Shown piece after piece: positions 17,823 to 52,896 of a DNA stretch of 64,000 nucleotides. The stretch is from the NCBI GenBank assembly GCA_964530925.1, contig CAZHBZ010000002.1:3621-67620 (forward strand). Reading direction: 5' to 3'. The DNA is from an uncultured Candidatus Saccharibacteria bacterium (GTDB lineage Bacteria; Patescibacteriota; Minisyncoccia; UBA6257; 2-01-FULL-56-20). Each line of letters begins with the position of its first letter. Within the stretch, counting starts at the first letter, position 1. Under the pieces are notes generated by a model. That model made no database searches and was not told the DNA's origin. It saw only the letters and a list, made by a program, of their open reading frames with translations. The translations under genes were made by a program, and so were the position numbers.

Positions 17823-19136
17823 ATGTCTAGCCTAAAGAAAACCGCCCTATTTCTTGGAGATACGGTTATTTTGTATGTCTCGCTCGCGGCGACGCTTTTT
17901 ATCCGCTACCGTGGCGAGAACCTCCCGACCTATTTCAACACCCACCTTCTCCCGTTTTCCTTAATCTTTATAGTGTGGCTTACAATCTTCTACGTCGCCG
18001 ACCTATATAAGCATTCGACATTCAGAACTCGCGGAGCGTTATTCAGCTCTCTTTTTAGCTCGGTTTTTATCTCTGGCATTTCCTCCGTTATTATTTTTTA
18101 TATTTTCGGCGGCTTTTTTGAATTGACGCCAAAAACCAATCTGGCGATTTTCTCCGCGGTATTCCTCGCCTTGGATTATCTTATGCGCAGCGCTTTCCTC
18201 GGACTATTCCGTTCCGGCGCGATAAACATCGTCGTCTTGGGAGATTCTCCGCTAATCAAGGAGGCTCTTGCCGGGCTCAAAGATAATCCGCAGGCTGGAT
18301 ATAAAGTAATTCATTGGTTCAATGATTTCAGCGAAGACTCTCTTCCTTCTTTGTCCGAAATAGTAAGATCCGGCCGGGCGGAGCTTGTTGTCATCCAACC
18401 CAAACTTGTTTCCGACCCAAAAACAATTGCCGCTCTATACGACTTGCTCCCGATGGGAATCAATCTTATGAACTTCTCTGATTTTTATGAAGCCATTTTC
18501 GAAAAAGTTCCACTCGAAGAAGTCGAGGAGGGATGGTTCGTAGAACACATAGCCCCCCGCCGCCCAATATATGATCGCGTCAAACGCCTCACTGACATTC
18601 TGTTTGCTTCGCTTGGCGGCCTTATCCTCCTCCCCTTCGCCCTCCTTATCGCGATAATCATAAAAACAACCTCGCGCGGACCCCTTATATACAAGCAAGC
18701 GCGGCTTGGCCGGGGCGGCAAGATATTCACGCTCTATAAATTCCGCAGTATGACCACTAACCAAGAGGGGCCGCTCTGGACGGAAAAAAATGATTCTCGC
18801 ATAACTAGATTCGGGCGAATAATTCGTTTTACCCATCTGGATGAAATTCCGCAATTTTGGAACATTCTCAAAGGAAATATTTCGATCGTGGGTCCCCGTC
18901 CGGAAGCCGTGGGTCTCGCGGAAAAATATTCGGAGTTCCCCTACTACGAGATACGCCATATTATTCCTCCGGGATTGACTGGTTGGGCGCAGACGCATTT
19001 CCGCCCCAGCGCCTCCATGTCGGAAGCCTGGGAAAAACTGCGCTACGACATCTACTATGTAAAAAACCGTTCCTTTGTCCTGGATTTTCTCATAATCCTA
19101 AAGACCCTCAAATACTTCTTCGCGAATCACGATTAA
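17823..19136 (+). CDS. polyprenyl-phosphate sugar-1-phosphate transferase (WbaP/CpsE-type initiating 'bacterial sugar transferase')
   Basis: N-terminal TM block plus the conserved C-terminal catalytic domain (KRLTDILFASLGGLILLPF..., YKFRSM, GPRPE..., PGLTGWAQ). Confidence 0.92.
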   Translation: MSSLKKTALFLGDTVILYVSLAATLFIRYRGENLPTYFNTHLLPFSLIFIVWLTIFYVADLYKHSTFRTRGALFSSLFSSVFISGISSVIIFYIFGGFFELTPKTNLAIFSAVFLALDYLMRSAFLGLFRSGAINIVVLGDSPLIKEALAGLKDNPQAGYKVIHWFNDFSEDSLPSLSEIVRSGRAELVVIQPKLVSDPKTIAALYDLLPMGINLMNFSDFYEAIFEKVPLEEVEEGWFVEHIAPRRPIYDRVKRLTDILFASLGGLILLPFALLIAIIIKTTSRGPLIYKQARLGRGGKIFTLYKFRSMTTNQEGPLWTEKNDSRITRFGRIIRFTHLDEIPQFWNILKGNISIVGPRPEAVGLAEKYSEFPYYEIRHIIPPGLTGWAQTHFRPSASMSEAWEKLRYDIYYVKNRSFVLDFLIILKTLKYFFANHD

Positions 19137-19144
19137 TCTTCCGA

Positions 19145-20629
19145 ATGCTTAAGCGCATAAAATCCTGGCTTTTTGAAAATCGCCACACAAGACAAACTGT
19201 TGTTAAAAACACCATTTGGCTTTCCATAGGCACGATTGCGAGCCGTGTCATTAAAGCCATAATAATAATTTACGCAGCCCGCGTTATGGGCACGGAAAGT
19301 TACGGTATCTTTTCTTACGCCTTGAGCCTCGCGGCAATGTTCTCTCTGTTCGCGGACATAGGCACGGGCGGAATCCTAACAAGAGAAGTTTCGCGCGATC
19401 CTGCCACGCTAGAAAAAAATCTCTCTTCTTCTTTTGTTATCAAAATCAGCCTGTTGTTGTTCAGCATGTTCTTGGTCGGCGGAGTAGCTCCGCTCTTTTC
19501 CGCGATAAAGGGCGCGGACTCCCTCATGCCTCTTGCGGCGCTTCTCATCGCCTTTGACGCTCTTCGGGAATTCGGCTTCAGTATCACGAGGGCATGGCAA
19601 AAAATGGAAATTGAGGCCGGAATAAATATGGTTACCGGCATCGGAATCACCATTTTCGGACTGATTGCTTTATGGATCAAACCTACCCCGTTCGTTCTTA
19701 TGGTGGGCTACGTTCTCGGTTCCGGCCTCGGGCTTTTAATTGCCGCGATTCTTTTAGGGAAATATCTCAAAAATTTCTGGAAAAATTTTGATTGGCAACA
19801 CACCAAAAATATGCTGGCGATAGCGTTGCCCTTCGCAATCGGCGGAGTACTTAACGCGCTAACGGTGAATACGGATGCCGTAATGATCGGCTGGCTCCGC
19901 GGGGCAAGCGATGTTGGTCTTTATGCAGCCGCACAAAGACCAATTCTGCTGATTTATATGGCCTCCTCCCTCTTGGCGACAAGCGTTTTCCCGATAATGA
20001 TGAAATCTATAGGAAAGGATGAGCAGCGCGTAAAATTGATATTCGAAAAAACAATGACTATTTCTTTTCTGGCTAGCATGCCGATATTTGTAGGTGGCGC
20101 GATTCTTGCACCCCAAATAATCTCTTTTATATTCGGCTCGCAATACACTAGCGCATCAGCGACGTTCGCAACACTACTATTCACAGTTGTTATGGTCTTC
20201 GCCGCCGCCAACCTCATTAACGGCATATTCGCCTACAACAAACAAAAGATGCTGGTCACTTATTTGATAATCGGAGGAGTCGGGAATGTCCTCCTCGATT
20301 ATCTCTTAATTCCTTCGTTTGGAATATTAGGCTCAGCTATCGCGACAATAATCTCCCAAGGGTCGGCTTATGGATACCTTTGGTACCAACTGAAAAAAAT
20401 TAATAATTTCCACACCCTCAAATATCTGACCAAGGGATTCGCGGCTGTCGGCATAATGGGCCTGTCCACATTCTTAATGGGAATGGTGCATATAAACGTT
20501 ATCGCCAATGTGGCAATTTCCGCAATCGTATACTTCGGGGCTTTAATTCTTCTTAAGGAAGAAATGGTGGAAGAAGTAAAATCTATTTTCCACCTCGGAA
20601 ATGCAGCTTCCTCTTCCGCGGGAGTCTAG
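19145..20629 (+). CDS. polysaccharide flippase (Wzx, MOP/MATE-like superfamily)
   Basis: 494 aa, about 12-14 TM helices, typical 'polysaccharide biosynthesis protein' architecture; the ATG at 19145 avoids overlap with the upstream gene. Confidence 0.8.
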   Translation: MLKRIKSWLFENRHTRQTVVKNTIWLSIGTIASRVIKAIIIIYAARVMGTESYGIFSYALSLAAMFSLFADIGTGGILTREVSRDPATLEKNLSSSFVIKISLLLFSMFLVGGVAPLFSAIKGADSLMPLAALLIAFDALREFGFSITRAWQKMEIEAGINMVTGIGITIFGLIALWIKPTPFVLMVGYVLGSGLGLLIAAILLGKYLKNFWKNFDWQHTKNMLAIALPFAIGGVLNALTVNTDAVMIGWLRGASDVGLYAAAQRPILLIYMASSLLATSVFPIMMKSIGKDEQRVKLIFEKTMTISFLASMPIFVGGAILAPQIISFIFGSQYTSASATFATLLFTVVMVFAAANLINGIFAYNKQKMLVTYLIIGGVGNVLLDYLLIPSFGILGSAIATIISQGSAYGYLWYQLKKINNFHTLKYLTKGFAAVGIMGLSTFLMGMVHINVIANVAISAIVYFGALILLKEEMVEEVKSIFHLGNAASSSAGV

Positions 20630-21852
20630 TTCCGTCTCCCAGAAATTATCTCCCTTATCCTCTGAACTGCAAACTCTAACGAAAGATTCTTCTCGGCGTA
20701 TTCGCGCCCATGCTGCCCCATTGTCGCCATTTCTTGTTCGCTTTTGGCGGCTAATTCACGAATATTTTTTTCTGCGGTTTCCATATCCCCAGCCACGGAA
20801 GCCAACCCGCAATTCGTTTTTGATACCAGCTCGAAAGCGTCGCTCTCCTTATTTAAAAATGCCAATATGGGCTTCCCCGCGGCCATATAGCCCAAAAATT
20901 TGCCCGGAACAAATGGGGTTTTGTTCTGGGAGCTCAAACAGACAATGCCCACATCGGCAATCGCCGCCAGATCCGGATAATCTTCCTTAGAAACAAAACC
21001 TTGAAGAGAAATATTCTTAAGTCCATATCTCTCCATGGCGGCCGCTACTTTTGGCTTTTCCATTCCATCGCCCACCAGCAAAAAGACGGTGTTCTCAATA
21101 TCTTTAACCTTATTTGCGACTTCAACCAAAAACTCCATTCCCTGCGCCGGACCCATAATACCGGCAAATAAAAATATTTTTTTACCTTCCAGGCCGTAAA
21201 TTTTTCGGAAATCTTTCTGAGCCGGCCTCCCGTACTCTCCCAGATCTATCCAGTTTTCCAAAGTGACTATCTTATTTTCCGGAACATGCTTCTTCTCTAT
21301 CAAAAACTTCCTGCCTCCAGCCGAATGAAAAGTTATAACGTCCGCGCTCTTATACGCAAATTTTTCAATCGCCTCAAAAAATTTTATAGCCAGGCCGTTC
21401 TTTAATATTCCCAAATCAATGGCATTTTGAGGGAAGATATCCTGAAGATTTAACAAAAACTTTGCCCCATACTTCCTTTTGATGAGCGCACCGGCAATCG
21501 GGAGAGTCACCGGGGGGCTATACACTATCACTCCATCCAAGTTTTTCCCCGCGTATTTTCTTGCCTTACGAAACACCAAAAATGGCAGAAGCAACTGGGA
21601 GACACCCCTAATTATGAAATTAACCTTCTTAAGCGGCGGAGTTTTTATTCTAATTACTTTTATGCCGCCCTCGTCCATAAATTCATCGAATTTCCCGGCG
21701 AGAGACTTGTCCGCCAAGTAATGCTTGGGATGCGTGGTGGCAACAATTACTTCGTCGCCCCGAGCCGCAAGCCCCTGCGAAAGCTCCTGAATCAAACTTG
21801 CCGCTGAGGACACCTCCGGCGGATAAACATCGGCGATTATGAGTATCTTCAT
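20626..21852 (-). CDS. GT4 glycosyltransferase (WbuB-like, putative L-FucNAc transferase)
   Basis: GT-B GT4 architecture (MKILIIADVYPPEVSSAA...E...G motifs); sits directly downstream of the fnlC-like gene, as in fnlABC-wbuB clusters. Confidence 0.8.
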   Translation of the reverse strand: MKILIIADVYPPEVSSAASLIQELSQGLAARGDEVIVATTHPKHYLADKSLAGKFDEFMDEGGIKVIRIKTPPLKKVNFIIRGVSQLLLPFLVFRKARKYAGKNLDGVIVYSPPVTLPIAGALIKRKYGAKFLLNLQDIFPQNAIDLGILKNGLAIKFFEAIEKFAYKSADVITFHSAGGRKFLIEKKHVPENKIVTLENWIDLGEYGRPAQKDFRKIYGLEGKKIFLFAGIMGPAQGMEFLVEVANKVKDIENTVFLLVGDGMEKPKVAAAMERYGLKNISLQGFVSKEDYPDLAAIADVGIVCLSSQNKTPFVPGKFLGYMAAGKPILAFLNKESDAFELVSKTNCGLASVAGDMETAEKNIRELAAKSEQEMATMGQHGREYAEKNLSLEFAVQRIREIISGRRN

Positions 21853-22985
21853 TATAGGGCGCGCTTTTTCTTGAGTATCCTCGTCAGACCAACTATATGC
21901 CTCAGCACCTTGCTTGAAACGTTCGTATCTCGATAATTGCGCGGAACGTTCATTTTTACACCTCGAGCTCGTTCTCCCACCGTCACATCTATGGCAAGCA
22001 AGATCGCGTCCCTGCTTCGTCCGGCGAGAATCGCCACTCCCTCATCAAACGCTTCCGGCCTCTCGGAACTGACCCTCATTTGTACCGCCGGAAAATCCAT
22101 CGCCGCGGATTCTTCGTGGATACTCCCGCTATCGGAGATAACGCAAAACGCTTCTCTCTGAAGTTTATTGAAATCAAAATATCCGAAAGGTTTGTGGAAG
22201 TTTATAAGTTCATTCGCCTTCATTCCATATTCTTCCAACCTCTTGGCGGTCCTCGGATGCGTGCTCATGATTATCGGCATTTTGTACTCCTCCGCTACCG
22301 CGTTCAAAGAATCAATGAGCTCCGTAAAAGACTCTTTGGAATCCACGTTTTCTTCCCGATGGATAGTCGCCACAAAATATTTTTTGGGCTCGAGTTTTAA
22401 CTCTTCCAGTATTTTGGATGCATCCACCCCATCCTTATATGCGGCAAAAACTTCCGTAAGTGGGGTGCCGGTGACAAATATGGTGCCCGGGGGTATTCCT
22501 TCTTGGATAAGATACTGCCTCGCGTTTTCGCTGTACGGCAAATTTATGTCGCTTATGTGGTCCACAATACGGCGATTTATTTCTTCCGGCAGATGTTCGT
22601 CGAAAGAACGGTTGCCGGCTTCCATATGAAAAATGGGGATACGAAGGCGCTTGGCTATTATCGCGGCGAGCGCGCTATTAGTATCACCCAAGATAAGCAC
22701 CGAATCCGGATTTTCCTTTTTTATAACCTCCTCGCTCTTTTCTATTATTTTCGCGATCTGGCCTCCAAGAGTTTCCGACTTAACCTCTAAAAAGTAGTCC
22801 GGCTTCCTGACCCTCAGGTCGTCGAAAAACACTTGGTTCATTTCGTAATCGTAGCTCTGCCCGGTATGCACCATTATGTGTTCAACATATTCATCCAACT
22901 TCGCAAAGACCCGCGATAAACGAATTATCTCCGGCCTCGTGCCGAAGATGGTCATAACTTTCAGCTTTTTAGAATTGGTCTTCAT
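21852..22985 (-). CDS. UDP-N-acetylglucosamine 2-epimerase (non-hydrolysing; FnlC/Cap5G/WecB-like)
   Basis: 377 aa; GTRPEIIRL..., HxEAG, ...DSGSI(H)EE blocks of the UDP-GlcNAc 2-epimerase family. Confidence 0.9.
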   Translation of the reverse strand: MKTNSKKLKVMTIFGTRPEIIRLSRVFAKLDEYVEHIMVHTGQSYDYEMNQVFFDDLRVRKPDYFLEVKSETLGGQIAKIIEKSEEVIKKENPDSVLILGDTNSALAAIIAKRLRIPIFHMEAGNRSFDEHLPEEINRRIVDHISDINLPYSENARQYLIQEGIPPGTIFVTGTPLTEVFAAYKDGVDASKILEELKLEPKKYFVATIHREENVDSKESFTELIDSLNAVAEEYKMPIIMSTHPRTAKRLEEYGMKANELINFHKPFGYFDFNKLQREAFCVISDSGSIHEESAAMDFPAVQMRVSSERPEAFDEGVAILAGRSRDAILLAIDVTVGERARGVKMNVPRNYRDTNVSSKVLRHIVGLTRILKKKRAL

Positions 22986-22993
22986 TTTTTATT

Positions 22994-23380
22994 TTATACT
23001 TCCTCCGGAAAAGTGTCTGGATTTTCGGGGTCAAATACCTCATTTACCCAAACAACCAGCCCCATCTCTCCTTCGCCGATATTTTTAATATTGTGCGTCC
23101 AATTGAGCGGCATATCAATGATGGTCGGATTTTCGCCAGAAACATCAAACTCCGCTTTTTCGCCGGTTTCTCTGTTCCGGAGCGATATCTTAGCCCTCCC
23201 TTTGACCACACAGAAACGCTCCACCTTGTGCTTCAAGTGATAGTGATTTCCTCGAGTTTTGCCGGGATGCGTTGTGGAATAGAAAACCTGGCCAATCCCC
23301 GGAAATTTAAAAAGCTCCGCCAAGCTCCCTCGCTCATCGGACTTCCAGTCCAACTTTTCCACCTTAATTTCCTGGGACAT
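22994..23380 (-). CDS. cupin-domain protein corresponding to the C-terminal domain of FnlB/Cap5F/WbjC-type reductase
   Basis: Double-stranded beta-helix motifs (GxHYH...N.G....V...E); ATG at 23378-23380 (MSQEIKV) overlaps the upstream SDR ORF stop by 17 nt. Confidence 0.7.
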   Translation of the reverse strand: MSQEIKVEKLDWKSDERGSLAELFKFPGIGQVFYSTTHPGKTRGNHYHLKHKVERFCVVKGRAKISLRNRETGEKAEFDVSGENPTIIDMPLNWTHNIKNIGEGEMGLVVWVNEVFDPENPDTFPEEV

Positions 23381-24110
23381 ATGACAAATATACCTTATAT
23401 AATATTTTTTCCAACTTAGTCTCGGGCTTGATGGAGCCTTCGGCAAATCCCTCCATAAGCTCCGCGAGCCGTCCCACAGAAATTTCGTCTTTAGAATCCA
23501 GCTTTTTAAAAAACAGTTTTTGCTTCCGTTTGGCCCGAACCTCTCGAGTCAGCTCTCTCACCACTTCTCCAACGTATAAAAGACGGATGGTTTTCTTTGG
23601 ATCGTTGATCGGCAACTTTTTCCCGCCTGCCGCTTCGCTAGCAAAAGTCGAAACCACCGAATTATAAAACGGTCTCCCTCCCTCCCCGAATAAATTCGTG
23701 AGCCGAAATATGGAAACCTTGATCCCGTGTTTCCTTGAGATTTCTTCCAAAAGATTTTCCGCCAAACGCTTGCTTCGCCCATAAACAGAATCGTTCTCCG
23801 CCTGCACTGAAGAAGTGAAAATTATTTTTGCCTTCGGATTATTCGCCCAAACCGCCTCAGCCAGATTAAAGGTGGTTATGATGCTTCCGGCTACTACTTC
23901 CGCGTCCGTTCCCCGGTTGACGGCGGCGGCATGGATTATGACATCCGAACTTTTTACGAATTTTTTGAGTGCCGCCTGGGATGGGTGGACCAAGTTATTG
24001 TCCGGCAGGTCAAAATAAATGACCTTAAAACCCTCTTTCTTGAGAGTGTCGGAAAGATGCCTGCCTAAAAACCCTTTTCCGCCGGTTATTCCGACGGTTT
24101 TTCGATTCAT
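23364..24110 (-). CDS. short-chain dehydrogenase/reductase domain protein corresponding to the N-terminal domain of FnlB/Cap5F/WbjC
   Basis: Rossmann motif ITGGKGFLGRHL, catalytic Y..K (YGRSK); 248 aa; start overlaps the fnlA-like stop (ATGA). Confidence 0.8.
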   Translation of the reverse strand: MNRKTVGITGGKGFLGRHLSDTLKKEGFKVIYFDLPDNNLVHPSQAALKKFVKSSDVIIHAAAVNRGTDAEVVAGSIITTFNLAEAVWANNPKAKIIFTSSVQAENDSVYGRSKRLAENLLEEISRKHGIKVSIFRLTNLFGEGGRPFYNSVVSTFASEAAGGKKLPINDPKKTIRLLYVGEVVRELTREVRAKRKQKLFFKKLDSKDEISVGRLAELMEGFAEGSIKPETKLEKILYKVYLSYVPGN

Positions 24111-25153
24111 TTTCCTTGTGCTTTTAGTTCCGCCTTGACCTCATCCAAAGACAATATCAATTGCTTTGTCTCCTCTAGTGTCAATCGTCTGGTGTTCGCG
24201 GAAGTAAATCCCTCGTCCGGAAGATCTATTTTTTTGACCCCTTTAAAATAATAATCGCGATAATCAATTCCGTTGCCTTCCGGAACGATCTTGTAATACT
24301 CACCCATGTCTTCTGCGCGAAAAACTTCCTCCGAAGAAAGAAGAACTTCGTGCATTTTTTCTCCGGGACGAATTCCTATCTCTTCGACTCCGGCTTTATG
24401 ATCGAAAATGGAAACCAGCGCCTCGGCCACGTCCGCCATCGTAGAAGCTGGAGCTTTTCTTACATACATTTCTCCTTGCTTCCCATGAGCAAGCGCGAAC
24501 AATACAAGATCCGTCGCTTCTGACATCGGCATCATAAATCTGGTCATTTGATTGTGAGTGACCGTAAGAGGTTTGCCGGCTTTAATTTTACTCACGAAAT
24601 ACGGCAGCACGGACCCGCGCGTGTACATAACGTTTCCGTATCGGGTTCCGCAAACCACGGTTTTAGAATTATTCTCGCTCCGCGAGGCCGCGATCATAAC
24701 TCTTTCCATCAAGGCCTTGGTCATGCCCATCACGTTTATCGGGTACACAGCCTTGTCGGTCGAGAGTATGACAACCCGTTCCACACCATGGTGAATTGCC
24801 GCCTGAATCACATTGTGCGCTCCAAGCGCATTGGTCCTAATTGCTTCTACGGGAAAGAACTCGCAATTCGGAACCTGTTTTAAGGCCGCCGCGTGAAAAA
24901 CCAAGTCTATCCCTTTCATGAGATAGGTCACGGTGTCATGGTCGCGCACATCGCCCAAAACAAACTTAAGCCGGGGATCGTTAAATTTGTTCCCCATGTC
25001 GAATTGCTTTTTCTCATCCCGGCTGAAAATAATTATTTGTTTTGGCTCTAGCTTCAAAAGGCGTTCGGCCATGGCATTGCCAAAAGAACCGGTCCCGCCG
25101 GTTATAAGGATCGTTTTGCCGTTTATATTTTTGGCTACATCTTCTTCGCTCAT
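24107..25153 (-). CDS. UDP-N-acetylglucosamine 4,6-dehydratase/5-epimerase (FnlA/Cap5E/CapE-like)
   Basis: ILITGGTGSFG, MGMTKALMERV (CapD/PseB/FnlA family lysine-containing motif); 348 aa. Confidence 0.88.
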   Translation of the reverse strand: MSEEDVAKNINGKTILITGGTGSFGNAMAERLLKLEPKQIIIFSRDEKKQFDMGNKFNDPRLKFVLGDVRDHDTVTYLMKGIDLVFHAAALKQVPNCEFFPVEAIRTNALGAHNVIQAAIHHGVERVVILSTDKAVYPINVMGMTKALMERVMIAASRSENNSKTVVCGTRYGNVMYTRGSVLPYFVSKIKAGKPLTVTHNQMTRFMMPMSEATDLVLFALAHGKQGEMYVRKAPASTMADVAEALVSIFDHKAGVEEIGIRPGEKMHEVLLSSEEVFRAEDMGEYYKIVPEGNGIDYRDYYFKGVKKIDLPDEGFTSANTRRLTLEETKQLILSLDEVKAELKAQGK

Positions 25154-28938: not shown

Positions 28939-28939
28939 T

Positions 28940-34578: not shown

Positions 34579-34587
34579 TCCCCCGCA

Positions 34588-44922: not shown

Positions 44923-45534
44923 CTACTCCCAAAAATGGGCATTCGAAAGCGAACACATGACCGCATCAAGGGACATGCCCAGATCCTCTATCTTGCGCCT
45001 ATAAGACTCAATGTCCTCCGGACGACCCCACCTATCCGGAGAAACCAAAGCCGTTTTAAAGGGGGTTAACCTCACCACCACCTCCCGATCGAGGGGGAGG
45101 ATGGTGTTTGTGTCTATCCACGCCCAATTAACCAACCCAGCCTGAGCAAGCGCGAATTCAATTGGTTCCGCCTCGCTGTAGCGTACCGCAATTTCTTTAA
45201 CACCGGAGCGCGATGCGCGATATAGGTATGGAAATTCCACATCCAGGAGAAAATAGTTTTCTTTTGGAATTTTATATTTTTCCGCCAGAACGATACAGCG
45301 CTCTTCTGTCCCAGCCTCTTTTATATTAAAAATGATAAATTTGTGTTTGAAATTCTGCAGATATAATTCCAAACCATCGCATTCTTCCCCCGGCCCCGCT
45401 GGGTCATGGCTTAAATATAAGCTATCCGTTGTGGGGTTATGTCGCACATCTATCTCTACGCCGTAGATTTCGGGTACTTTTTTTAGATCCTCCACGCGAT
45501 TGATCCTGTGGATTATTATGATTGGTTTTTTCAT
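44923..45534 (-). CDS. GDPD-like (glycerophosphodiester phosphodiesterase/PLC-like) small protein
   Basis: IIIHRINRVEDL...GVEIDVRHNPTTDSLYLSHD resembles the GDPD HR...E.D...HD catalytic pattern; 203 aa. Confidence 0.5.
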   Translation of the reverse strand: MKKPIIIIHRINRVEDLKKVPEIYGVEIDVRHNPTTDSLYLSHDPAGPGEECDGLELYLQNFKHKFIIFNIKEAGTEERCIVLAEKYKIPKENYFLLDVEFPYLYRASRSGVKEIAVRYSEAEPIEFALAQAGLVNWAWIDTNTILPLDREVVVRLTPFKTALVSPDRWGRPEDIESYRRKIEDLGMSLDAVMCSLSNAHFWE

Positions 45535-45536
45535 TT

Positions 45537-46436
45537 TCAGATCAACATTGTCTTCCTGTGCTTCTCCGTTTCCATATTCCTCAAGTATATTACTTTTGCT
45601 TCTGGCAACAGCTCTATTTGAAAGCCGAGATTATTCGCGGAGGAAAGCACATAACTCCAGGCTCCGAACAATTCCTTTTCGGCAGGAGAATAATCATTAA
45701 ACCCCCGCCCGTTCACGGAAAAAACTGCTTGGTCCGGAAAGATAATGTCTTTCCCAAAATTAAAATTGTGCGTTCCCGCACCCACAACGTCCGGGACGTA
45801 TCGGGAAAGCCCTAGCTGAACTTTTATTTCTAAATCCAATTTCTTATGCAAATCCGCAAGCCTCTCGGCAGAATCTGCGGAAACTATCACTCCATGGTTC
45901 TTTAGGAAAATTATTTCGGGAATGCCTCTCTCTCTAACTAATTCGGCAACCGCGATCGCCAGCTCGGCCCCGGGATGGAAATATCCTAAAAATGCGGAGC
46001 TGAATCCGAGTTTCGAGCAAATATTCGCCGATAATTCTTCTCCGCCCGCAGAACAGGTCAAAACATTCGCATAAACGGAATGGGTATGAAGAACGTACTT
46101 CCCAAGAAATGCATGGAACCCGGCCTCCATTGAGGGCCTAAAATCCCCTCCGGCGAGTCGGCAGGACAAAAGAAATTCTGCTTCTTTTTTCTCGCCGCTT
46201 TCGCGATCCGGCTCCGCTAGCTTGCCATATCTTTCGGCAAGCATCGGATAGTTAATCTCCACAAATCCTTTTTGGGGGCTTAATTCGGAAAATCTCATCC
46301 CGGACGCCTTAATGATCATCGTACCTGCGCCCGTTTTAACCGAAAGATTTCCCCCGCTTCCCTGAACCGCATCCGGCGCGGAAAAATCGGCGGCAATCAT
46401 GGAAAGCTCAGTAAGTTCTTTTTTCATATTCTTCAA
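45537..46436 (-). CDS. class II aldolase/adducin-family protein (L-ribulose-5-P 4-epimerase/L-fuculose-P aldolase-like)
   Basis: GSGGNLS phosphate-binding motif, metal-binding H.H (HTHS...H). Confidence 0.8.
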   Translation of the reverse strand: MKNMKKELTELSMIAADFSAPDAVQGSGGNLSVKTGAGTMIIKASGMRFSELSPQKGFVEINYPMLAERYGKLAEPDRESGEKKEAEFLLSCRLAGGDFRPSMEAGFHAFLGKYVLHTHSVYANVLTCSAGGEELSANICSKLGFSSAFLGYFHPGAELAIAVAELVRERGIPEIIFLKNHGVIVSADSAERLADLHKKLDLEIKVQLGLSRYVPDVVGAGTHNFNFGKDIIFPDQAVFSVNGRGFNDYSPAEKELFGAWSYVLSSANNLGFQIELLPEAKVIYLRNMETEKHRKTMLI

Positions 46437-48534
46437 TTCTCATTCCTTCAAAAATATAATAACAGATAAAGAGCTGCATAAGCCCATCATAGCCGGAGGC
46501 CCACTTCGGTTCCCCCACGACAACATCCCAAAGCTCCGGGGCCACGCTGAAAGCAATCGAATCTATCTCTCCGGGAGAAACCTGCCCCTCTACCCTGACT
46601 TCTTGAAATTCATCTGAGAAAGAATGGTTCACGCGCATCCCCCGGAGCTCTCCCAGTGCGGAAAGAAGCGGATCCATATTTACGTGATTCCCGCACCTTA
46701 TGGCCAAATTCATATTCCCAGTTCCATCCACCCTGCCGAGAGAAACAACAATATCCGAATATTGTTCCTGGGGCTTAATGAACCGTTCGGAGTCGGATCC
46801 TCTTTTTTTAATCTGTTCCAGCACACGCGCCCGATCATAGCCCCTCTCTCGCATGTCACGTTCAACTTTCCAGTCAACCCTTAAATCTTCATCTGGACGC
46901 AAAAATATTTTTAGATCCAAGATGTCCCTCATCTTCGTCAGATACAAAGAGTGAAGCCCTTCAAAAATAATTATTTTTTTGGATTCCAGCTTTTCCGGAA
47001 GGGTAAACCTTCCTCTATTATGGTCGTATCTTTTCCTTTCCACTCCATCGCCTCCGCCGAGCCTAATCGCTTGCTCCAGGTCAGCGTGAAGATTATTTGC
47101 CCGCGGATCGAGGTGGGTAAACTTATTCCACATTTTGTTCCCCCTCTCCCATTTATGCATATCGTCTCCTTCGGCGACCACGGTATTTTTCTCCCCAAAT
47201 ACATCCGATATCAACCTAGCAACCGTAGATTTGCCGCTACCTGAGTCCCCGGAAAGTCCGATAAGATAGGGTTTGTAACTTATTTTGTAACGCATATTGC
47301 TCTCGATTCCCTTTCGGTATATCCAAAAAACACTGAGCGCCAAAGCGGCCTGCAGCGCGCTAAATATAGAATTAATTATTATCGCCGGGTTATGGCCATA
47401 GGAGGAGATGGCCGAATAAAGATTAGGATACCCGGCTATAACTTTTGATATAGGATAAAACACCTCGAACATATCCGAGTTGGGAATAAACATAAAATAC
47501 AAAAAATAAAGAAAGTTCAGGGCAAAAAAGCTAAGCATTGGAGCATCGTCCTGTTTTATGTAGAAATATATAAGAAACGGAAGCACCCAATAATACCAGC
47601 CTTGCATGGGCGGGATAAAGAAAGTAAGTATGCCGAAACTGAAACCGAGAAACATCAGGAAAATGTCTCGATTATAAGTCTTATAGGTGAAACCTTTCGC
47701 CAGAAGAAGAAGGTACGCAAATGGAACCAGGTAGATGACGAAGTTCCCGCCAAAATTTATCTTGAAGTCGAATACCTTAAACTCTTGGGGAGTTTTGAGA
47801 ACTATCTCTACGAATCCCGGAGATAGAAGGTAGTTGGCATTCAGCGCCAAAAAGACAAAGATCGGGATTGCCGAAAAGAGCAATACCTTTCTGACTCCTA
47901 TTTTCTGGCTCACAAGATATGCGATAGCAAAGGGTAGAACTATTAACATCCCCGTCTTCGCAGAAACAGCGAGCCCGAGAAATATAAAAGCCGCAAATAA
48001 TTTTTCTTTAAAAATAAAGTATAGCGAGACAAAAAGAAGGGCAATGGGAATCGCATCCAGCTGGCCATGAATATAGCTTATATAAAAAAGTATCGGTGAA
48101 CACCAATAATAGCGCAGCACTTTCTCTTGTTTGCTCTTGAGCCACCTGACCAAAATCAGGAATATCGCCAAGTCCGCCAAAAGTATGGGGAGTCTGTAGA
48201 TCAGGAGGTGCAGATTTCCGGCCGCGAAATAGTCCGCGCTAACCAGAAAAGAAAAAATTGCCCTTGGAACGGCCAGCGCCCAAAGCATCACGCTCGGGTA
48301 GGGAAAAATATCCAGAATCCCGGCTTGAGAAAAAAATGCATACGGGTTCTCAAACCCGCTAACCACGAAATAATTTATAAATCTGGAGAATAAATCCGTT
48401 AGGTAGTGTGAAGCGAAAAGCGCCGAAGACAGCAACTTCAGACCCAAAACACACCAAAAGAGAGGCCGTCTCAATATTGGGACTTTAAAACTTCCCTGCC
48501 TGTCATAAAGACGGCTTTTCAGGTATTTGACCAT
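46408..48534 (-). CDS. fusion protein: N-terminal polytopic membrane domain (about 420 aa, GT-C/DUF2029-like) plus C-terminal phosphoribulokinase/uridine-kinase-family P-loop kinase domain
   Basis: C-terminus: LIGLSGDSGSGKST (P-loop), IIFEGLH, KIFLRPDEDLRVDWKVERDMRERGY...PQEQYSDIVV closely follows the PRK/Udk family blocks; N-terminus has 11 or more hydrophobic helices; overlaps the downstream gene by 29 nt. Confidence 0.7.
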   Translation of the reverse strand: MVKYLKSRLYDRQGSFKVPILRRPLFWCVLGLKLLSSALFASHYLTDLFSRFINYFVVSGFENPYAFFSQAGILDIFPYPSVMLWALAVPRAIFSFLVSADYFAAGNLHLLIYRLPILLADLAIFLILVRWLKSKQEKVLRYYWCSPILFYISYIHGQLDAIPIALLFVSLYFIFKEKLFAAFIFLGLAVSAKTGMLIVLPFAIAYLVSQKIGVRKVLLFSAIPIFVFLALNANYLLSPGFVEIVLKTPQEFKVFDFKINFGGNFVIYLVPFAYLLLLAKGFTYKTYNRDIFLMFLGFSFGILTFFIPPMQGWYYWVLPFLIYFYIKQDDAPMLSFFALNFLYFLYFMFIPNSDMFEVFYPISKVIAGYPNLYSAISSYGHNPAIIINSIFSALQAALALSVFWIYRKGIESNMRYKISYKPYLIGLSGDSGSGKSTVARLISDVFGEKNTVVAEGDDMHKWERGNKMWNKFTHLDPRANNLHADLEQAIRLGGGDGVERKRYDHNRGRFTLPEKLESKKIIIFEGLHSLYLTKMRDILDLKIFLRPDEDLRVDWKVERDMRERGYDRARVLEQIKKRGSDSERFIKPQEQYSDIVVSLGRVDGTGNMNLAIRCGNHVNMDPLLSALGELRGMRVNHSFSDEFQEVRVEGQVSPGEIDSIAFSVAPELWDVVVGEPKWASGYDGLMQLFICYYIFEGMRIEEYEKRTY

Positions 48535-48558: not shown

Positions 48559-49212
48559 CTATCCTAAAAGAACCGTTCTTATTCCCGCTGCCTTTGCTCC
48601 GGAAATATCCTTTTCCAAATCGTCTCCTATAAGAAGGCACTCCTTTGGCCTCAGTTTAAGCTTCTTAAGAGCCAGGGAGAATATCGCCTCGTGGGGCTTA
48701 TCCTTTCCAGCCTCTTCCGAAGATACAATAAAATCCAGGTATTTATCAACCGAAAGGGATTTAACTTTCTCCATCTGTATCCGCGCAGTAAGATCGGTTA
48801 TCAGACAAATCTTTATCCCTCTTTTTTTCGAATTGGATAAAAAGGTTTTTACGCCCTCTTTCAAATTCATTTTTTTGAAAAAATTATTCCAAAAAATTTC
48901 TTCAATCCGCAAAGTCAGGGCGATATCAGTTCTTCCCAGATGTTTTTCCAAAAGTACCTGAAAATAAAGAAGGCGCGAGTGAGAGGCTGCTGTTCCTCCC
49001 AGAGAAGATTTTACTTCCTTGCGAGCTTCGCCATACATACGCTCCAGATCTTTTTCGGAAAGATTAAGGCGGCGACTCAACACCTTGAAACAGGCGCTCA
49101 TGCCGTTTTTGTTTGCCGGTTCGTAATCATAAAGAGTGTTGTCCAGATCCAAAAGGATACCCCTCACGCCAGACAGAGCAATTTCTGGGATATAAAATTT
49201 ATTTTTTTTCAT
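48559..49212 (-). CDS. HAD-superfamily hydrolase (subfamily IA-like phosphatase)
   Basis: Motif I LLDLDNTLYD, motif III K, motif IV LLIGDDLEKDISGAKAAG. Confidence 0.85.
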   Translation of the reverse strand: MKKNKFYIPEIALSGVRGILLDLDNTLYDYEPANKNGMSACFKVLSRRLNLSEKDLERMYGEARKEVKSSLGGTAASHSRLLYFQVLLEKHLGRTDIALTLRIEEIFWNNFFKKMNLKEGVKTFLSNSKKRGIKICLITDLTARIQMEKVKSLSVDKYLDFIVSSEEAGKDKPHEAIFSLALKKLKLRPKECLLIGDDLEKDISGAKAAGIRTVLLG

Positions 49213-50935
49213 AATTTTTCAAAACCAATTCAGCCCAAAAGCGAGAGAGGTGGCCTGGCGCGCCTTTTAAATCCAAAGAAAGCCAATTCCCCAGCGGAAA
49301 TGCGAAACCCATTTTCGGTCTGTCCCACACCTCGCGCGGCAAGTCTCGACCCATGGCGGAGATAAGCAACTCCTTGGGTCGCGCAGTCAGCTTGAGCGAG
49401 ACAGGAAGCGAACTTATATATTCCACGAGTACGTGATCCAAAAATGGGACCCTCGCCTCTATAGAATGTCGCATCGACATGAAATCCGTGTCTTTCAAAA
49501 GCTGGTTGGCCATGTAAAAATTGACCTCCAGCCAGGAAAGGGCGTCGGCCGGATGCAAATTCTTGAGTTCGGTTGGCAGGAAATCTCCAAGTTTAGCAAT
49601 ATAGCTCCAAACCGAAGACTCGTTTATTTTTAAAGTTTCCGCTATCTCCGCCGGGGGGAAAAGTCCCCGAAGCGACAAATAGAAGTTTATGAGCCCCTTT
49701 CCCTCATATAGATAAATTAATTTCGCCCAACTCCTCCGAAGGGATAAGAGTTTGAGCGGCCACTTTAAAATTTTTGGTAATTTTTGAACGAATCGAAAAA
49801 GGCTCGCTCGCTTAAAATAGTGGTAGCCCATAAAAATCTCGTCGCTCCCCAACCCGGAAAGCACCGCCTTGAGTCCGGCCTCTTTGGCCGCTCGAGAGAC
49901 AAAATATGTATTTACGCCATCGATGGTTGGCTGATCCATGGCCGCAAATATATTTTCCTTTTCCGACTCGAAATCTTCCCTCCCGACCAAGTATTCTTTG
50001 TGCCGGCTTTTAATTCGCGCCGTCACACCTTCCCGATACTTTTTCTCCGAAAATTTATATTCTTTAAAATCAATAGAAAGCGTATCTAGAGCTTTTTCTC
50101 TCTGTTTCGCGGCTAAAATGGCCAAAACGGATGAATCTATTCCCCCGCTCAAGAAAACTCCGAGTGGCGCGTCGCTTATGAGATGTAACCTGACGGATTC
50201 ATTCAATAGTTCCTTGATTCTTGAAACAGCCGCTCCTTTTGCTGGCGAAATTTTTTTGAGAAAGGAAGTTAGGGGCTCATAATATTTGATTTCTTTGGCC
50301 CCGTTTTTTGAAAAACTTAGATAATGTCCGGCTCTCACAGAATAAACCTCCTTGAATGTAGTCTTGGGAAGTGGCACCGAGCCAAAAAGCAAAAAGCCAA
50401 TCTTTGCCTCCTCGTCTTCATGTAGTTCCACGAGGCCGCTCTCTTTTATGGCCACGACCGTCGAGGCAAAAACAAGACCTCCCTGGGTCGCTGCGTAATA
50501 AAGCGGTTTTATCCCGTACCGATCGCGCGCGAGAATCAACTCTTCTCCCCGAGAATCATAAAGCGCTATCGCGAACATTCCCCGCAACTTGGAAAATGAT
50601 TCCTTCCCCCACTCTTTGTAGCTTGCGAGAATTACCTCAGTGTCAGTTTTTGTTTTGAACGAATACCCTTTTGCGACAAGTTCCTTTTTAATTTCTTCGA
50701 AGTTATATATCTCTCCATTGAAAGTTATATGCAAATTACCCGAAGACATCGGTTGATGCCCGTCGGCCGAAAGATCGATTATAGAAAGGCGTCTTTGGCC
50801 GAACGTTGCCGGACCGAAAGAATCGAGCCCTTCATCATCCGGCCCTCGAAGCTTCTGACGAGCGTTCATCTTGCGGACCGCATCTTCGGACCCTCGCCCA
50901 TCCGAAAACGAAATTGCCCCCGCGATTCCGCACAT
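49199..50935 (-). CDS. asparagine synthase (glutamine-hydrolysing) family amidotransferase
   Basis: N-terminal MCGIAG (Ntn Cys), SGGIDSS PP-loop; 578 aa; embedded in the glycan operon (WbpS/AsnB-like context). Confidence 0.88.
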   Translation of the reverse strand: MCGIAGAISFSDGRGSEDAVRKMNARQKLRGPDDEGLDSFGPATFGQRRLSIIDLSADGHQPMSSGNLHITFNGEIYNFEEIKKELVAKGYSFKTKTDTEVILASYKEWGKESFSKLRGMFAIALYDSRGEELILARDRYGIKPLYYAATQGGLVFASTVVAIKESGLVELHEDEEAKIGFLLFGSVPLPKTTFKEVYSVRAGHYLSFSKNGAKEIKYYEPLTSFLKKISPAKGAAVSRIKELLNESVRLHLISDAPLGVFLSGGIDSSVLAILAAKQREKALDTLSIDFKEYKFSEKKYREGVTARIKSRHKEYLVGREDFESEKENIFAAMDQPTIDGVNTYFVSRAAKEAGLKAVLSGLGSDEIFMGYHYFKRASLFRFVQKLPKILKWPLKLLSLRRSWAKLIYLYEGKGLINFYLSLRGLFPPAEIAETLKINESSVWSYIAKLGDFLPTELKNLHPADALSWLEVNFYMANQLLKDTDFMSMRHSIEARVPFLDHVLVEYISSLPVSLKLTARPKELLISAMGRDLPREVWDRPKMGFAFPLGNWLSLDLKGAPGHLSRFWAELVLKNYEKK

Positions 50936-50936: not shown

Positions 50937-51536
50937 TTATTTTCCTTTTTCCGGAGCCTTTAGCGTCGCCAAAAGATCGCTCACCCGGGAATCATCCGGC
51001 CAATATTTCAAAATAGTCCCTCCAACTTCTCTTGTATTCTCGTCATCTCCGACCGCGCTATAAAGCGTCAGAAGACCGTAAAGGACCGGCGGCAATTTCG
51101 GTCCGAGTTCACGCGCTCGTTTGTAATAGTCTATGGCGGCATCATAATCATCCTGCTTCATAAACCGAGTGAGAGACATTGTGTGAAGAGTTGCCATAGC
51201 AATATAATGCCGCGTGTCCGGATATATTTTCGGTTCGATATAATCTATAAGTTCCCGCGCCATCGATTCGGATATGTCTTGCTGCGAGTTGACCACGGAA
51301 AGGATATTGCTTGTAAGATATTTCGCCGACTCCTCTCCTCCGACCGGAGAATAGAAATCAAAAACTTTATCGAAATTCGCTTTGAAATCAGCGATGGTGC
51401 GCACGCTGTTGGCGCTTCGGGCCGAGTCTATATAGGTTTGCGATTTTAAGACCGGCAAGACCGAACCGAATACAAACAAAAAAACCACGGCGAGGATACA
51501 GAGCGAAATAACCGCCAATTTAAAACTATTGTTCAT
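50937..51536 (-). CDS. hypothetical membrane-anchored TPR-like protein
   Basis: N-terminal TM segment followed by helical repeats (…AIDYYKRARELGP…); no precise family. Confidence 0.5.
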   Translation of the reverse strand: MNNSFKLAVISLCILAVVFLFVFGSVLPVLKSQTYIDSARSANSVRTIADFKANFDKVFDFYSPVGGEESAKYLTSNILSVVNSQQDISESMARELIDYIEPKIYPDTRHYIAMATLHTMSLTRFMKQDDYDAAIDYYKRARELGPKLPPVLYGLLTLYSAVGDDENTREVGGTILKYWPDDSRVSDLLATLKAPEKGK

Positions 51537-52896
51537 TAGTCCTGTTTTCTTTTGCCCGCGACGAATTCAGAAGATAGTAGGCAAAACCAAAGAAGAGAAA
51601 AATATTCAAGTAAGTCGGCAATATGTCGAAAAGCACCATGCCCTGCACCAGGTAAGCTATGGGCAACGCGAAGACTATCGCCTTGGCGGCTGGCGAGAGC
51701 TTCGCTAGTCTTGAAGCGTTCTCGTGGCTCGAATGTTTCTCCCGCCCCTTTCTTAAAACCTCCACGAAGAAAACCAAAAAAATAGAGAAGTACGCGAGAG
51801 TTCCCAAAAGCCCTATCTCCGCCAAATAATCAAAGAATATATTATGAGCCCTATCGAACCACGCGCCGAACGCCGCCGGCGGCTTGAAATATTCGGTATT
51901 AAAATTGCGGTCAAAAACATGTAAGAAATTTTCCGGACCGGCTCCCAAAAGCGGCCTCTCTTTAAATCCGTCCCAAGCCATCTTCCAGATAGTGCGGCGG
52001 TCGCTGAAAGTTTGAGCGCTGAAAGAAATATCAAAAACCCTGGCGAACGGGAGCTTCTTTATGAGCGGATTATCTTTTAAGACGACCATCGCCGACACAA
52101 ACAAAACCACAAACGCCGCAAGCCCAATAAGCCACTTCCTCCACTCTTTTTTGGAGAACGCCAAAAATCCCAGGAAAAATACCGAACTCGCGATTAAAGC
52201 TAGGAAAGCTCCGCGGGTCGCCGCCAAAAATAGAAATACAATAAATATCAAAACGGAAGCGGCTATCGGCAGGCCCTTAACCGAACGAATCTGTCCGCGA
52301 TATTTAGTAAAAAGGAGATAAAGAGCGAAAAAGAGCATAAAAATCATGTAAGTCGCGAAATAGGCCGGGTTTCCGATAGAACCTTGGAATCGGAAATTCT
52401 CCGCGCTAAACGCCGGGCCGATCACGTTCTCCACTCCCCAGCCCGCCAAAAGACCGTAACCAATAGAAAGGAAGGCGGCGGAAAAAGAGCACCAGAATAT
52501 TCTTATCCAGTTCTTCTCTTCGTCAAAAAGCGCCGCTAAAAGCAGAAAAAATCCATAAAGATGGAGTATCTGTAAGCCACCCTCTCCCCGCTCAAAATTA
52601 GACCAAAAAGAATTGGCTGGATCGACGCCAAAAGCTCCAGAGAGAAGAAAAAAGAATGTAAACGCTGAAATCGCGATGCCGAGCGGAGACCTTATAACTT
52701 TGCGTAGCTTGTCTAGATAGACATCGCCGTCGCTCTCTTTTATGAGCCCGATAAGGAAAAAGATAAGCGCGAAGTCAACGGAACTCCGAAACCACGCGTA
52801 TTTCCCAACGATAAAAGGGAAAAGCGTGGATGTAGTAACCAAGGTTATCGCGAAAACCGCGGCGTAAAGAAAAAATTTTGATATTTTGAATGACAT
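51526..52896 (-). CDS. O-antigen ligase/polymerase family membrane protein (Wzy_C)
   Basis: 10-12 TM helices with a periplasmic loop (…QGSIGNPAY…ATRGAF…); 456 aa; closes the Wzx/Wzy-type locus. Confidence 0.75.
   Translation of the reverse strand: MSFKISKFFLYAAVFAITLVTTSTLFPFIVGKYAWFRSSVDFALIFFLIGLIKESDGDVYLDKLRKVIRSPLGIAISAFTFFFLLSGAFGVDPANSFWSNFERGEGGLQILHLYGFFLLLAALFDEEKNWIRIFWCSFSAAFLSIGYGLLAGWGVENVIGPAFSAENFRFQGSIGNPAYFATYMIFMLFFALYLLFTKYRGQIRSVKGLPIAASVLIFIVFLFLAATRGAFLALIASSVFFLGFLAFSKKEWRKWLIGLAAFVVLFVSAMVVLKDNPLIKKLPFARVFDISFSAQTFSDRRTIWKMAWDGFKERPLLGAGPENFLHVFDRNFNTEYFKPPAAFGAWFDRAHNIFFDYLAEIGLLGTLAYFSIFLVFFVEVLRKGREKHSSHENASRLAKLSPAAKAIVFALPIAYLVQGMVLFDILPTYLNIFLFFGFAYYLLNSSRAKENRTNEQ

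Follow-up and report, generated by a model that had tools for sequence, protein, structure and literature searches.

The 64-kb window analysed here (contig CAZHBZ010000002.1; unless another locus is named, positions refer to the window) contains one contiguous surface-glycan island. A six-frame listing of open reading frames (ORFs) combined with Pfam placed it at 17823-52896, about 35 kb with 34 tightly packed genes. It occupies a conserved chromosomal slot bounded by GroEL-TrxB-DsbA and, at the opposite end, by TPR-Wzy_C-RNase Y-iPGM. The first-pass annotation had drawn its ends at an initiating polyprenyl-phosphate sugar-1-phosphate transferase (17823) and an O-antigen ligase/polymerase (52896), with a flippase, and Pfam confirmed the three as Bac_transf, Wzy_C, and Wzx (Polysacc_synt) proteins, respectively. 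Individual parts were called by Pfam, NCBIfam/TIGRFAM, PDB matches, a hydrophobicity profile for transmembrane (TM) segments, and identity to a sibling genome. The most unusual content of the island is a cassette fed by a phosphoribulokinase (PRK). Its seven genes encode a GDPD-like enzyme, a HAD phosphatase, a fusion of a GT-C glycosyltransferase with PRK, a class II aldolase-like enzyme, two nucleotidyltransferase paralogs, and a DPM1-like GT2 glycosyltransferase, and all of them lie on the minus strand.

The fusion protein (46408-48534, 708 aa) consists of an N-terminal GT-C domain (aa 1-410) and a C-terminal PRK domain (aa 415-708). Its C-terminal 290 aa matched the NCBIfam PRK subfamily NF005655 with an E-value of 2.6e-56, and the PDB matches were cyanobacterial and Methanospirillum PRKs (E ~1e-40) and uridine kinases (1e-17). 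Six residues, R464, Y503, H505, R559, D560, and R564, were invariant in 26 fusion proteins. They match the ribulose 5-phosphate (Ru5P)-binding and catalytic residues R64, Y103, H105, R159, D160, and R164 of Chlamydomonas PRK, CrPRK (bioRxiv 10.1101/422709). The domain carries the PRK fold, the P-loop, and the conserved Ru5P-site residues, and is predicted to be a phosphoribulokinase (EC 2.7.1.19).

The HAD phosphatase (48559-49212) had the haloarchaeal ribulose 1,5-bisphosphate (RuBP) 5-phosphatase model NF053830 as its best NCBIfam match (E 4.9e-60, 203 bits), and its PDB matches were NANP-like. The aldolase-like protein (45537-46436, Aldolase_II), a predicted class II aldolase/epimerase-like zinc enzyme, keeps the FucA-type N, S-G, SxE, HxH, and NHG residues (phosphate-binding, Glu, and His-His-His zinc) in 54 sequences. 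It matched best the RhaD-type N-domains found in bifunctional enzymes; FucA models reached no better than E ~1e-5. Its homologs (loci L081-L164) share a conserved C-terminal extension with an 'FPDQ' motif and a terminal 'N-M-E-S-E-K-Y-R' motif, in which P234, D235, E291, and R294 are conserved in at least 93%. To our knowledge, these extension motifs have no counterpart in characterised class II aldolases.

The GDPD-like protein (44923-45534, 203 aa) has 1,470 homologs and no Pfam match even at E-values up to 5. Its AlphaFold2 (AF2) model (pLDDT 97) matched GDPD/GlpQ structures in Foldseek (2pz0, 5t91, and 3ks5; E ~1e-6, TM-score 0.64-0.72), and on that model the protein is a minimal GDPD-fold TIM barrel. 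Within its HR, ExDxR, and HD motifs, H9-R10, E27-x-D29, and H43 were invariant and D44 was present in most of 33 sequences; we take the HR...ExD...HD motifs to be the GDPD catalytic set. The two sugar-phosphate nucleotidyltransferase-like paralogs, A (43170-44000; NTP_transf_3 and PDB matches) and B (44001-44909; Pfam and PDB matches, start refined), are 30% identical to each other, and IspD and inositol-1-phosphate cytidylyltransferase were among the matches. The small GT2 (39758-40456, 232 aa; Pfam and NCBIfam) is a putative polyprenyl-phosphate glycosyl synthase of the DPM1/ArnC/PpgS kind. It matched ArnC, PgfS, PpgS, and Dol-P-hexose transferase weakly, with all scores far below the cutoffs, and has no TM helix. 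GtrA_DPMS_TM genes stand beside the cassette in two relatives.

The co-occurrence of the cassette genes was examined in 84 metagenomic loci anchored on the fusion protein, which has more than 740 homologs. Neighbours were identified by tblastn, and many of the loci are cut by contig ends. The aldolase-like gene was found in 69 loci, the HAD gene in 62, the GDPD-like gene in 59, nucleotidyltransferase-like A in 57 and B in 56, and the GT2 in 49. Of the 23 loci whose flanks were long enough, 20 had the complete set of seven genes, which spanned a median of 6.96 kb. In the window, the small GT2 lies two genes beyond the nucleotidyltransferases. The intervening genes encode a 640-aa PMT_2-like GT-C (40457-42379, minus; 12 TM) and an S-adenosylmethionine (SAM) methyltransferase (42379-43173, minus; Methyltransf_11/23), the latter placed identically in the sibling and L085. 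This GT-C and its adjacent methyltransferase accompany the cassette in only 4/84 loci, and apparently represent a lineage-specific insertion into it. The earlier pairing of the GtrB-like GT2 with the 640-aa GT-C was therefore not borne out, as the GT2 co-occurs instead with the GT-C-PRK fusion (49/84 versus 4/84 loci). Judged from sequence, gene fusions also tie the parts of the cassette together: GT-C-PRK-aldolase (1,058 aa), PRK-aldolase (470 aa), HAD-aldolase (556 aa), and GDPD-like-NTP-NTP (746 aa, in L202), where NTP denotes a nucleotidyltransferase domain.

A PRK domain without GT-C was found on 77 IMG/VR contigs (L167-L243), among them giant-virus bins and one phage-like contig that also carries DnaB. 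Its neighbours were nucleotidyltransferase-like genes in 68 of these loci, aldolase-like genes in 63, GDPD-like genes in 22, and HAD genes in 14, and GT-C and GT2 occurred in none of the 77. The modules, exemplified by L239 (9995-12228) and L202 (9350-17005), show the architectures PRK-aldolase plus nucleotidyltransferase-like, HAD-aldolase, and GDPD-like-NTP-NTP, and often adjoin DegT aminotransferases. Among GenBank phages, no record with the PRK-aldolase module was found. No description of the GT-C-PRK fusion or the seven-gene cassette was found in the literature, of which the coverage was incomplete, so that absence is not proven.

At the opposite end from the initiating transferase, the Wzy_C-family membrane protein (51526-52896, minus; Wzy_C E 8.9e-23) is followed by its conserved partner, a membrane-anchored TPR protein (50937-51536, minus; Pfam TPR). 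In about 50 of 80 loci compared with RNase Y as the anchor, RNase Y is directly followed by genes for a homolog of Wzy_C (32-51% identity) and for a TPR protein, and the genes beyond them differ. For example, in L029 a DsbA homolog lies only about 2.3 kb past the TPR gene, where the window has 33 kb of glycan genes. In the distant relative L082, a single 731-aa protein (4176-6371) combines Wzy_C and TPR, which supports a functional pairing of the window genes at 50937-52896. L001 and L002, the closest RNase Y relatives (77-79%), have unrelated convergent genes downstream of RNase Y and neither the Wzy_C/TPR pair nor glycan genes there; the anchor pair is lost or moved in this nearest sampled lineage.

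The first-pass annotation had called the locus 'Wzx/Wzy-type', with polymerisation by the Wzy_C protein. Polymerases normally co-vary with the structure of the repeat unit. In the sibling, however, identity is at the level of housekeeping genes for Wzy_C (90%) and lower for Wzx (63%), which favours a ligase or O-oligosaccharyltransferase with en-bloc transfer. No ORF of at least 100 aa in the 64-kb window matched a Wzz/PCP or LCP Pfam family, although such genes are possible elsewhere in the genome, and the window contained no additional polytopic polymerase candidate. A polytopic Wzy_C protein, an assembly line for an undecaprenyl diphosphate (Und-PP)-linked oligosaccharide, and Wzx stand together in the locus, as in O-oligosaccharyltransferase/ligase systems. 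The Wzy_C protein is probably a glycan ligase or O-oligosaccharyltransferase rather than a polymerase, and the earlier reading is revised in this respect.

The other island genes complete an assembly pathway and several sugar pathways. The initiating polyprenyl-phosphate sugar-1-phosphate transferase, of the large WbaP/CpsE type (17823-19136, plus), carries Bac_transf (E 1.6e-60) and CoA_binding_3 with 5 TM and is 91.5% identical in the sibling. It is followed by the Wzx-type flippase (19145-20629, plus; Polysacc_synt E 1e-35, about 12 TM, start refined). By Pfam, GT4 glycosyltransferases are encoded at 20626-21852, 26861-28108, and 38712-39761, and GT2 glycosyltransferases, apart from the cassette member, at 25201-26022, 30556-31578 (65% identical in the sibling), and 35643-36647, all on the minus strand. 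A CgeB-like glycosyltransferase lies at 36671-37723 (minus; Glyco_trans_1_2 E 3e-30). Besides the methyltransferase inserted into the cassette, SAM methyltransferases are encoded at 28051-28974 (minus; Methyltransf_11 with a C-terminal Trm112p-like zinc ribbon), 29867-30604 (minus; Methyltransf_11), and 34566-35618 (plus; Methyltransf_11/25, 61% in the sibling), and FkbM-family members at 28940-29860 and 37725-38612 (both minus; Pfam and TIGR01444). An AsnB-type glutamine amidotransferase (49199-50935, minus; Pfam, TIGR01536 at 428 bits) lies between the TPR and HAD genes and is possibly a uronamide-forming enzyme or a true Asn synthase.

These searches upheld the first-pass assignments of glycosyltransferases (three GT4, four GT2, one CgeB-like, and one GT-C, the last below the Pfam threshold) and of six SAM methyltransferases, including two FkbM members. 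With 6/34 island genes, the methyltransferase load is high, and the same six are retained in the sibling. The listed genes were real, but the inventory had omitted the PRK, HAD, aldolase, and nucleotidyltransferase genes, the N-formyltransferase, the UDP-L-FucNAc trio, and the second GT-C domain.

The three enzyme types for UDP-L-FucNAc, FnlA/CapE, FnlB/CapF, and FnlC/CapG, were all found by Pfam in a row at 21852-25153, on the minus strand. They are an FnlA/CapE-type UDP-GlcNAc 4,6-dehydratase/5-epimerase (24107-25153; Polysacc_synt_2 E 2e-101 and Polysacc_syn_2C), a CapF/FnlB in two parts, and an FnlC/CapG-like UDP-GlcNAc 2-epimerase (21852-22985; Epimerase_2 E 2.5e-93). The CapF/FnlB parts are a short-chain dehydrogenase/reductase (SDR) ORF (23364-24110; Epimerase/RmlD_sub_bind) and a cupin ORF (22994-23380; Polysacc_synt_C E 7e-43) that overlap by 17 nt. 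A frameshift or pseudogene at 23364-23446 was considered and rejected, since an ATG specific to the cupin ORF lies where the two domains meet and the sibling is split too, with a short gap between the two ORFs (L165 11044-12183). Therefore, the split is not a sequencing error but a conserved gene split at a domain boundary.

A second sugar pathway is predicted around a sugar N-formyltransferase (31688-32302, plus; Formyl_trans_N E 1.4e-21) that resembles the ArnA N-domain and dTDP-sugar formyltransferases. An NDP-hexose 4,6-dehydratase of the RmlB/LegB kind (33595-34578, plus; Pfam and NCBIfam, GC3 0.71) and a DegT-family NDP-ketosugar aminotransferase of the LegC/PseC kind (32340-33458, minus; Pfam E 1.5e-114, NCBIfam, start refined) lie beside it, and together they predict an N-formylated amino-dideoxy sugar. 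An ORF previously called on the opposite strand (31508-32077, minus) has no family and was rejected as spurious, since this region encodes the formyltransferase. The 233-aa NDP-sugar dehydrogenase-like protein (26088-26789, minus; TIGR03026 E 8e-11) has a Rossmann N-terminus, and matches solely the central domain of UDP-glucose/GDP-mannose dehydrogenases (UDPG_MGDP_dh); its GC content is 0.54 and its identity in the sibling is 63%. The possibility of a truncated Ugd pseudogene was rejected because the sibling protein has a similar length (247 aa), and it is probably a real short protein.

In the sibling genome (ENA ERZ13692958, NODE_60, 319 kb), the whole locus is colinear over 35.3 kb between the same housekeeping flanks, so the genes are syntenic and not scattered. 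Amino acid identity was 88-97% in the flanking genes and similarly high in FnlA (97%), the 4,6-dehydratase (97%), and the GT-C-PRK fusion (96%), and it was low (61-65%) in Wzx, one GT2, one methyltransferase, and the dehydrogenase-like gene. The position of the GT4 at 38712-39761 is held by a GT9 gene in the sibling, and the formyltransferase is absent there, as 31632-32307 had no DNA match. Such gene-level replacement between siblings is the pattern expected of a surface-antigen locus. The cassette-wise assembly proposed in the first-pass annotation gained support from the GT4-to-GT9 exchange, the formyltransferase present in one genome only, per-gene identities of 61-97%, and the seven-gene block that stands alone in many genomes. 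The mosaic GC content proposed with it is real but modest. The island genes range from 0.41 to 0.55, with 0.53-0.55 in the aminotransferase, the dehydratase, and the short dehydrogenase-like gene and 0.42-0.44 in methyltransferase and glycosyltransferase blocks, and the island as a whole has 0.457 versus 0.490 in the flanks.

The RNase Y adjoining the island is 61-79% identical to those of Patescibacteria metagenome-assembled genomes labelled Liptonbacteria, Paceibacteria, or Parcubacteria. On this sequence similarity the host is placed as an uncultured Paceibacteria ("Liptonbacteria"-like) bacterium within the candidate phyla radiation (CPR), and a small genome is consistent with a Patescibacteria affiliation. 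CPR bacteria are reported to have no lipopolysaccharide (LPS) and an unresolved envelope (PMC5220378), which makes an 'O-antigen' in the strict sense unlikely. Other genes in the window encode iPGM, RNase J, TrpRS, GroEL, ThyX, TrxB, a DsbA-like protein, a split transketolase, ribulose-phosphate 3-epimerase, and a PfkB kinase. In the window, Rfam at gathering thresholds returned two tRNAs and no other match, and a repeat search found no mobile-element or boundary repeats. A restriction-modification pair at 8088-10002 (minus), an R.Pab1-like endonuclease and an N6 DNA methylase, has a GC content of 0.36-0.37 versus about 0.50 in its neighbours; it directly adjoins tRNA-Ser(GGA) at 10079-10164 and resembles a recently acquired islet. 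Between DsbA and the initiating transferase, a 195-aa protein of no family with three hydrophobic segments is encoded at 17097-17684 (minus). In the same place, the sibling has a 188-aa gene in which no tblastn similarity to it was detected.

As a whole, these data are best explained, with a modest degree of confidence, by one island that would carry out ligase-type en-bloc glycan transfer together with GT-C decoration, including that by the PRK-fed cassette. The components for assembly are the WbaP-type transferase, seven cytoplasmic glycosyltransferases, six SAM methyltransferases, Wzx, Wzy_C with TPR, two GT-C domains, and the DPM1-like GT2. A methylated hetero-oligosaccharide with FucNAc and a formamido sugar would be built on undecaprenyl diphosphate and flipped across the membrane by Wzx. 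The Wzy_C/TPR pair would then move it en bloc to a surface acceptor, for which a pilin, an S-layer or other protein, and the wall are candidates. Outside the membrane, the GT-C enzymes would decorate the glycan using polyprenyl-phosphate-linked sugars.

For the cassette, we infer an order of reactions from the domain and fold identities, the co-occurrence, and the gene fusions observed. The PRK domain would convert Ru5P to RuBP, and the HAD enzyme would take off the 5-phosphate to give ribulose 1-phosphate (Ru1P). A haloarchaeal HAD and FucA operon provides an experimental precedent, in which a RuBP 5-phosphatase is followed by a class II aldolase acting on Ru1P (PMC9700705). The aldolase-like enzyme may then remodel the ketose-1-phosphate by epimerisation, cleavage and recondensation, or dehydration, and the GDPD-like enzyme and the two nucleotidyltransferases may yield a nucleoside diphosphate (NDP)-activated pentulose or pentose-derived unit. 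Finally, the small GT2 would load this unit onto polyprenyl phosphate, and the fused GT-C domain would attach it outside the membrane. Elsewhere in the window, the genes at 982-5208 (minus) make up a non-oxidative pentose-phosphate block: one for a PfkB-family kinase, two for the separate C and N halves of a transketolase, and one for ribulose-phosphate 3-epimerase. By its predicted enzymes, this block would supply Ru5P to the PRK domain.

It is likely that the cassette is a biosynthetic, glycan-related pathway starting with the PRK reaction, and the six-step scheme is tentative even in outline. The fullest form of the proposal is speculative, and we consider it somewhat unlikely as a whole. 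It holds that the cassette is an undescribed activation route, in which Ru5P would pass through RuBP and a ketose-1-phosphate to an NDP-linked and then polyprenyl-phosphate-linked ketopentose (ribulo- or xylulofuranose) or derived pentose. The fused GT-C would add this unit to the cell surface, and the soluble core (PRK, aldolase-like enzyme, and nucleotidyltransferase) would also be used by uncultured phages and giant viruses. Several product schemes may apply, none of which is favoured: NDP-Ribf or NDP-Araf via an aldose-1,5-bisphosphate, migration of the phosphate from position 1 to position 2 through a cyclic phosphate, a dehydration like that of MtnB, and formation of dihydroxyacetone phosphate (DHAP) and glycolaldehyde.

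Several observations weigh against this interpretation of the island and its cassette. The scores of the PRK domain (191 bits) and the HAD enzyme (203 bits) lie below the respective model cutoffs of 236 and 330, the 640-aa GT-C scored 24.8 bits versus a Pfam cutoff of 26.1 despite its 12 hydrophobic peaks, and the aldolase-like protein lies far from the characterised enzymes FucA, RhaD, AraD, and MtnB. The phosphate of a ketose-1-phosphate is not anomeric, and the scheme does not explain the glycosyl donor for GT2. The window contains no GtrA-like flippase gene, and the genes of the locus leave no intergenic space for one. Most viral versions have no HAD, GDPD-like, or GT2 gene and a single nucleotidyltransferase gene, so the reaction order may differ from the proposed scheme. 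Furthermore, the Wzy_C family includes true polymerases, and the ligase reading draws solely on conservation and synteny.

The last point bears on a classical Wzx/Wzy-dependent heteropolysaccharide, capsule or O-antigen-like, in which Wzy_C would polymerise flipped units and another enzyme encoded elsewhere would attach the polymer to the wall. The initiating phosphoglycosyl transferase (PGT), Wzx, and Wzy_C are all within one locus, the glycosyltransferases suffice for a 7-8-sugar repeat unit, and the Pfam family of Wzy_C accommodates this role. We nevertheless regard it as possible but doubtful, given the missing Wzz/PCP and LCP genes in the window, a conserved Wzy_C/TPR pair that is syntenic in about 50 related genomes with different or almost no glycan genes next to it, an identity of 90% for Wzy_C in the sibling versus 61-65% for Wzx and several glycosyltransferases, and the report that CPR bacteria have no LPS (PMC5220378). 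A different division of the 35 kb would assume that at least two systems share the region: one would make a Wzx-dependent oligosaccharide, and the other, Gtr-like and independent of it, would comprise the cassette, the second GT-C, and the methyltransferase and modify a different polymer or protein. In favour of this division, most of the 84 loci have the cassette but not the rest of the island, GC content and divergence form a mosaic along the island, and Gtr-type systems act on preformed polymers. The packed co-directional string at 52896-35643, however, suggests co-transcription, and the same arrangement is retained in the sibling and in L085. We treat such a division as a doubtful possibility; it overlaps the one-island interpretation and is not exclusive of it.

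Two further alternatives concern the chemistry of the cassette. The non-anomeric phosphate of Ru1P would suit a teichoic-acid-like phosphodiester decoration, in which a CDP-pentulose (or a polyol or C3 unit) formed on the 1-phosphate, as in CDP-ribitol and CDP-glycerol, would be transferred as 'X-phosphate' while GT2 and GT-C serve a separate ordinary sugar. MobA/IspD-like nucleotidyltransferases typically activate polyol phosphates, with IspD and inositol-1-phosphate cytidylyltransferase among the matches here, the GDPD fold implies phosphodiester chemistry, and the viral versions have no GT2. This scheme is nonetheless unlikely. The cassette has no TagF-, LicD-, or CDP-alcohol-phosphotransferase-type enzyme and no reductase for polyol formation, GT2 and GT-C are conserved, integral members of it in bacteria, and the PRK is physically fused to GT-C. 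It is very unlikely that the PRK-HAD-aldolase-like trio is a catabolic or central-carbon shunt from Ru5P through RuBP and Ru1P to DHAP and glycolaldehyde, a bacterial non-carboxylating pentose bisphosphate pathway placed in a glycan island by chance. The HAD enzyme does match RuBP 5-phosphatase best, the aldolase-like protein retains every FucA-type zinc and catalytic residue, and the haloarchaeal operon performs exactly both steps (PMC9700705). But the PRK is fused to a glycosyltransferase, and in 20/23 complete loci the trio is flanked by nucleotidyltransferases, the GDPD-like gene, and GT2. A biosynthetic role is indicated by the GDPD-NTP-NTP and HAD-aldolase fusions and by viral copies next to DegT-type genes, the aldolase-like protein stands apart from the FucA clade, and no ribose 1,5-bisphosphate (R15P) isomerase, ribose 1-phosphate kinase, or nucleoside phosphorylase was found in the window.

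If the fullest form of the proposal, with its undescribed activation route, is true, many 'PRK' genes of CPR and viral metagenomes would belong to glycan biosynthesis and not be Calvin-cycle or RuBisCO partners. It would also bear on how bacteria activate ketofuranoses for glycan assembly. PRK is the usual marker of CO2 fixation, and its occurrence in a glycan or nucleotide-sugar pathway affects how PRK matches are read in metagenomic surveys. The cassette is widespread, judging from the numbers of fusion and GDPD-like homologs (>740 and ~1,470, respectively) and from the presence of its soluble core on contigs of phages and giant viruses. A new activated sugar is predicted from it, as is new enzymology for the class II aldolase-like and minimal GDPD-fold enzymes. 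Furthermore, CPR bacteria are episymbionts with essentially uncharacterised envelopes and surfaces of contact with their hosts, and a conserved slot with a probable glycan ligase and a fast-changing 33-kb glycan island offers a handle on their surface variation.

Among known systems, the closest sequences and structures to the PRK domain are archaeal and 'cyanobacteria-specific' PRKs (PDB 5B3F and 9QKO) and CPR PRKs (PMC6389311), with the Ru5P-binding and catalytic residues kept. Those enzymes are stand-alone and interpreted together with RuBisCO, and CPR homologs were earlier reported only for Gottesmanbacteria and Peregrinibacteria (PMC6389311). In contrast, the island PRK is fused to GT-C within a glycan cassette, and the window has no RuBisCO. 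The FnlA/FnlB/FnlC enzymes correspond in type to CapE/CapF/CapG of S. aureus, and differ in that the island CapF/FnlB is split into SDR and cupin ORFs, as in the sibling.

The cassette resembles three further systems in logic but belongs to none of them. It shares with the haloarchaeal non-carboxylating pentose bisphosphate pathway a RuBP 5-phosphatase-like HAD beside a class II aldolase-family enzyme, with RuBP as the implied substrate (PMC9700705). However, its RuBP would come from PRK and not from R15P isomerase, its aldolase-like protein lies outside the FucA clade and has the C-terminal extension, and its embedding with nucleotidyltransferases, GT2, and GT-C looks biosynthetic and not catabolic. 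The mycobacterial decaprenyl-phosphate-arabinose route, and likewise Pseudomonas TfpW pilin arabinosylation, follows a similar logic of extra phosphorylation of a pentose phosphate, removal of the 5-phosphate, a polyprenyl-phosphate-pentose donor, and use by GT-C. The cassette differs from the mycobacterial route in having no homologs of phosphoribosyl pyrophosphate (PRPP) synthetase, UbiA-type transferase, or DprE1/E2, and apparently runs via RuBP and nucleotidyltransferases. Gtr-type systems (GtrA/GtrB/GtrC; also ArnC/ArnT, Ppm1/PimE, and CsbB/YfhO) likewise pair a small DPM1/ArnC-type GT2 with a GT-C, and GtrA-like genes adjoin the cassette in some relatives. The cassette departs from them in the fusion of its GT-C to a cytoplasmic kinase, its own five-enzyme precursor pathway, a GT2 without TM, and a window without GtrA.

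General O-glycosylation loci, such as those of Neisseria PglL, Geobacillus WsaB, and the Tannerella forsythia cluster (PMC6120980), also hold PGT, glycosyltransferases, methyltransferases, Wzx, and Wzy_C in one locus. A predicted Und-PP-linked oligosaccharide is transferred en bloc, and there is no chain-length regulator. The island differs from them in its CPR host and in a Wzy_C with a separate TPR partner, and its six methyltransferases, two GT-C domains, and PRK-fed cassette are found only in the island. By analogy, the island overall appears to most resemble such O-glycosylation loci with a Wzy_C-type transferase, with the addition of Gtr-type GT2/GT-C decoration.

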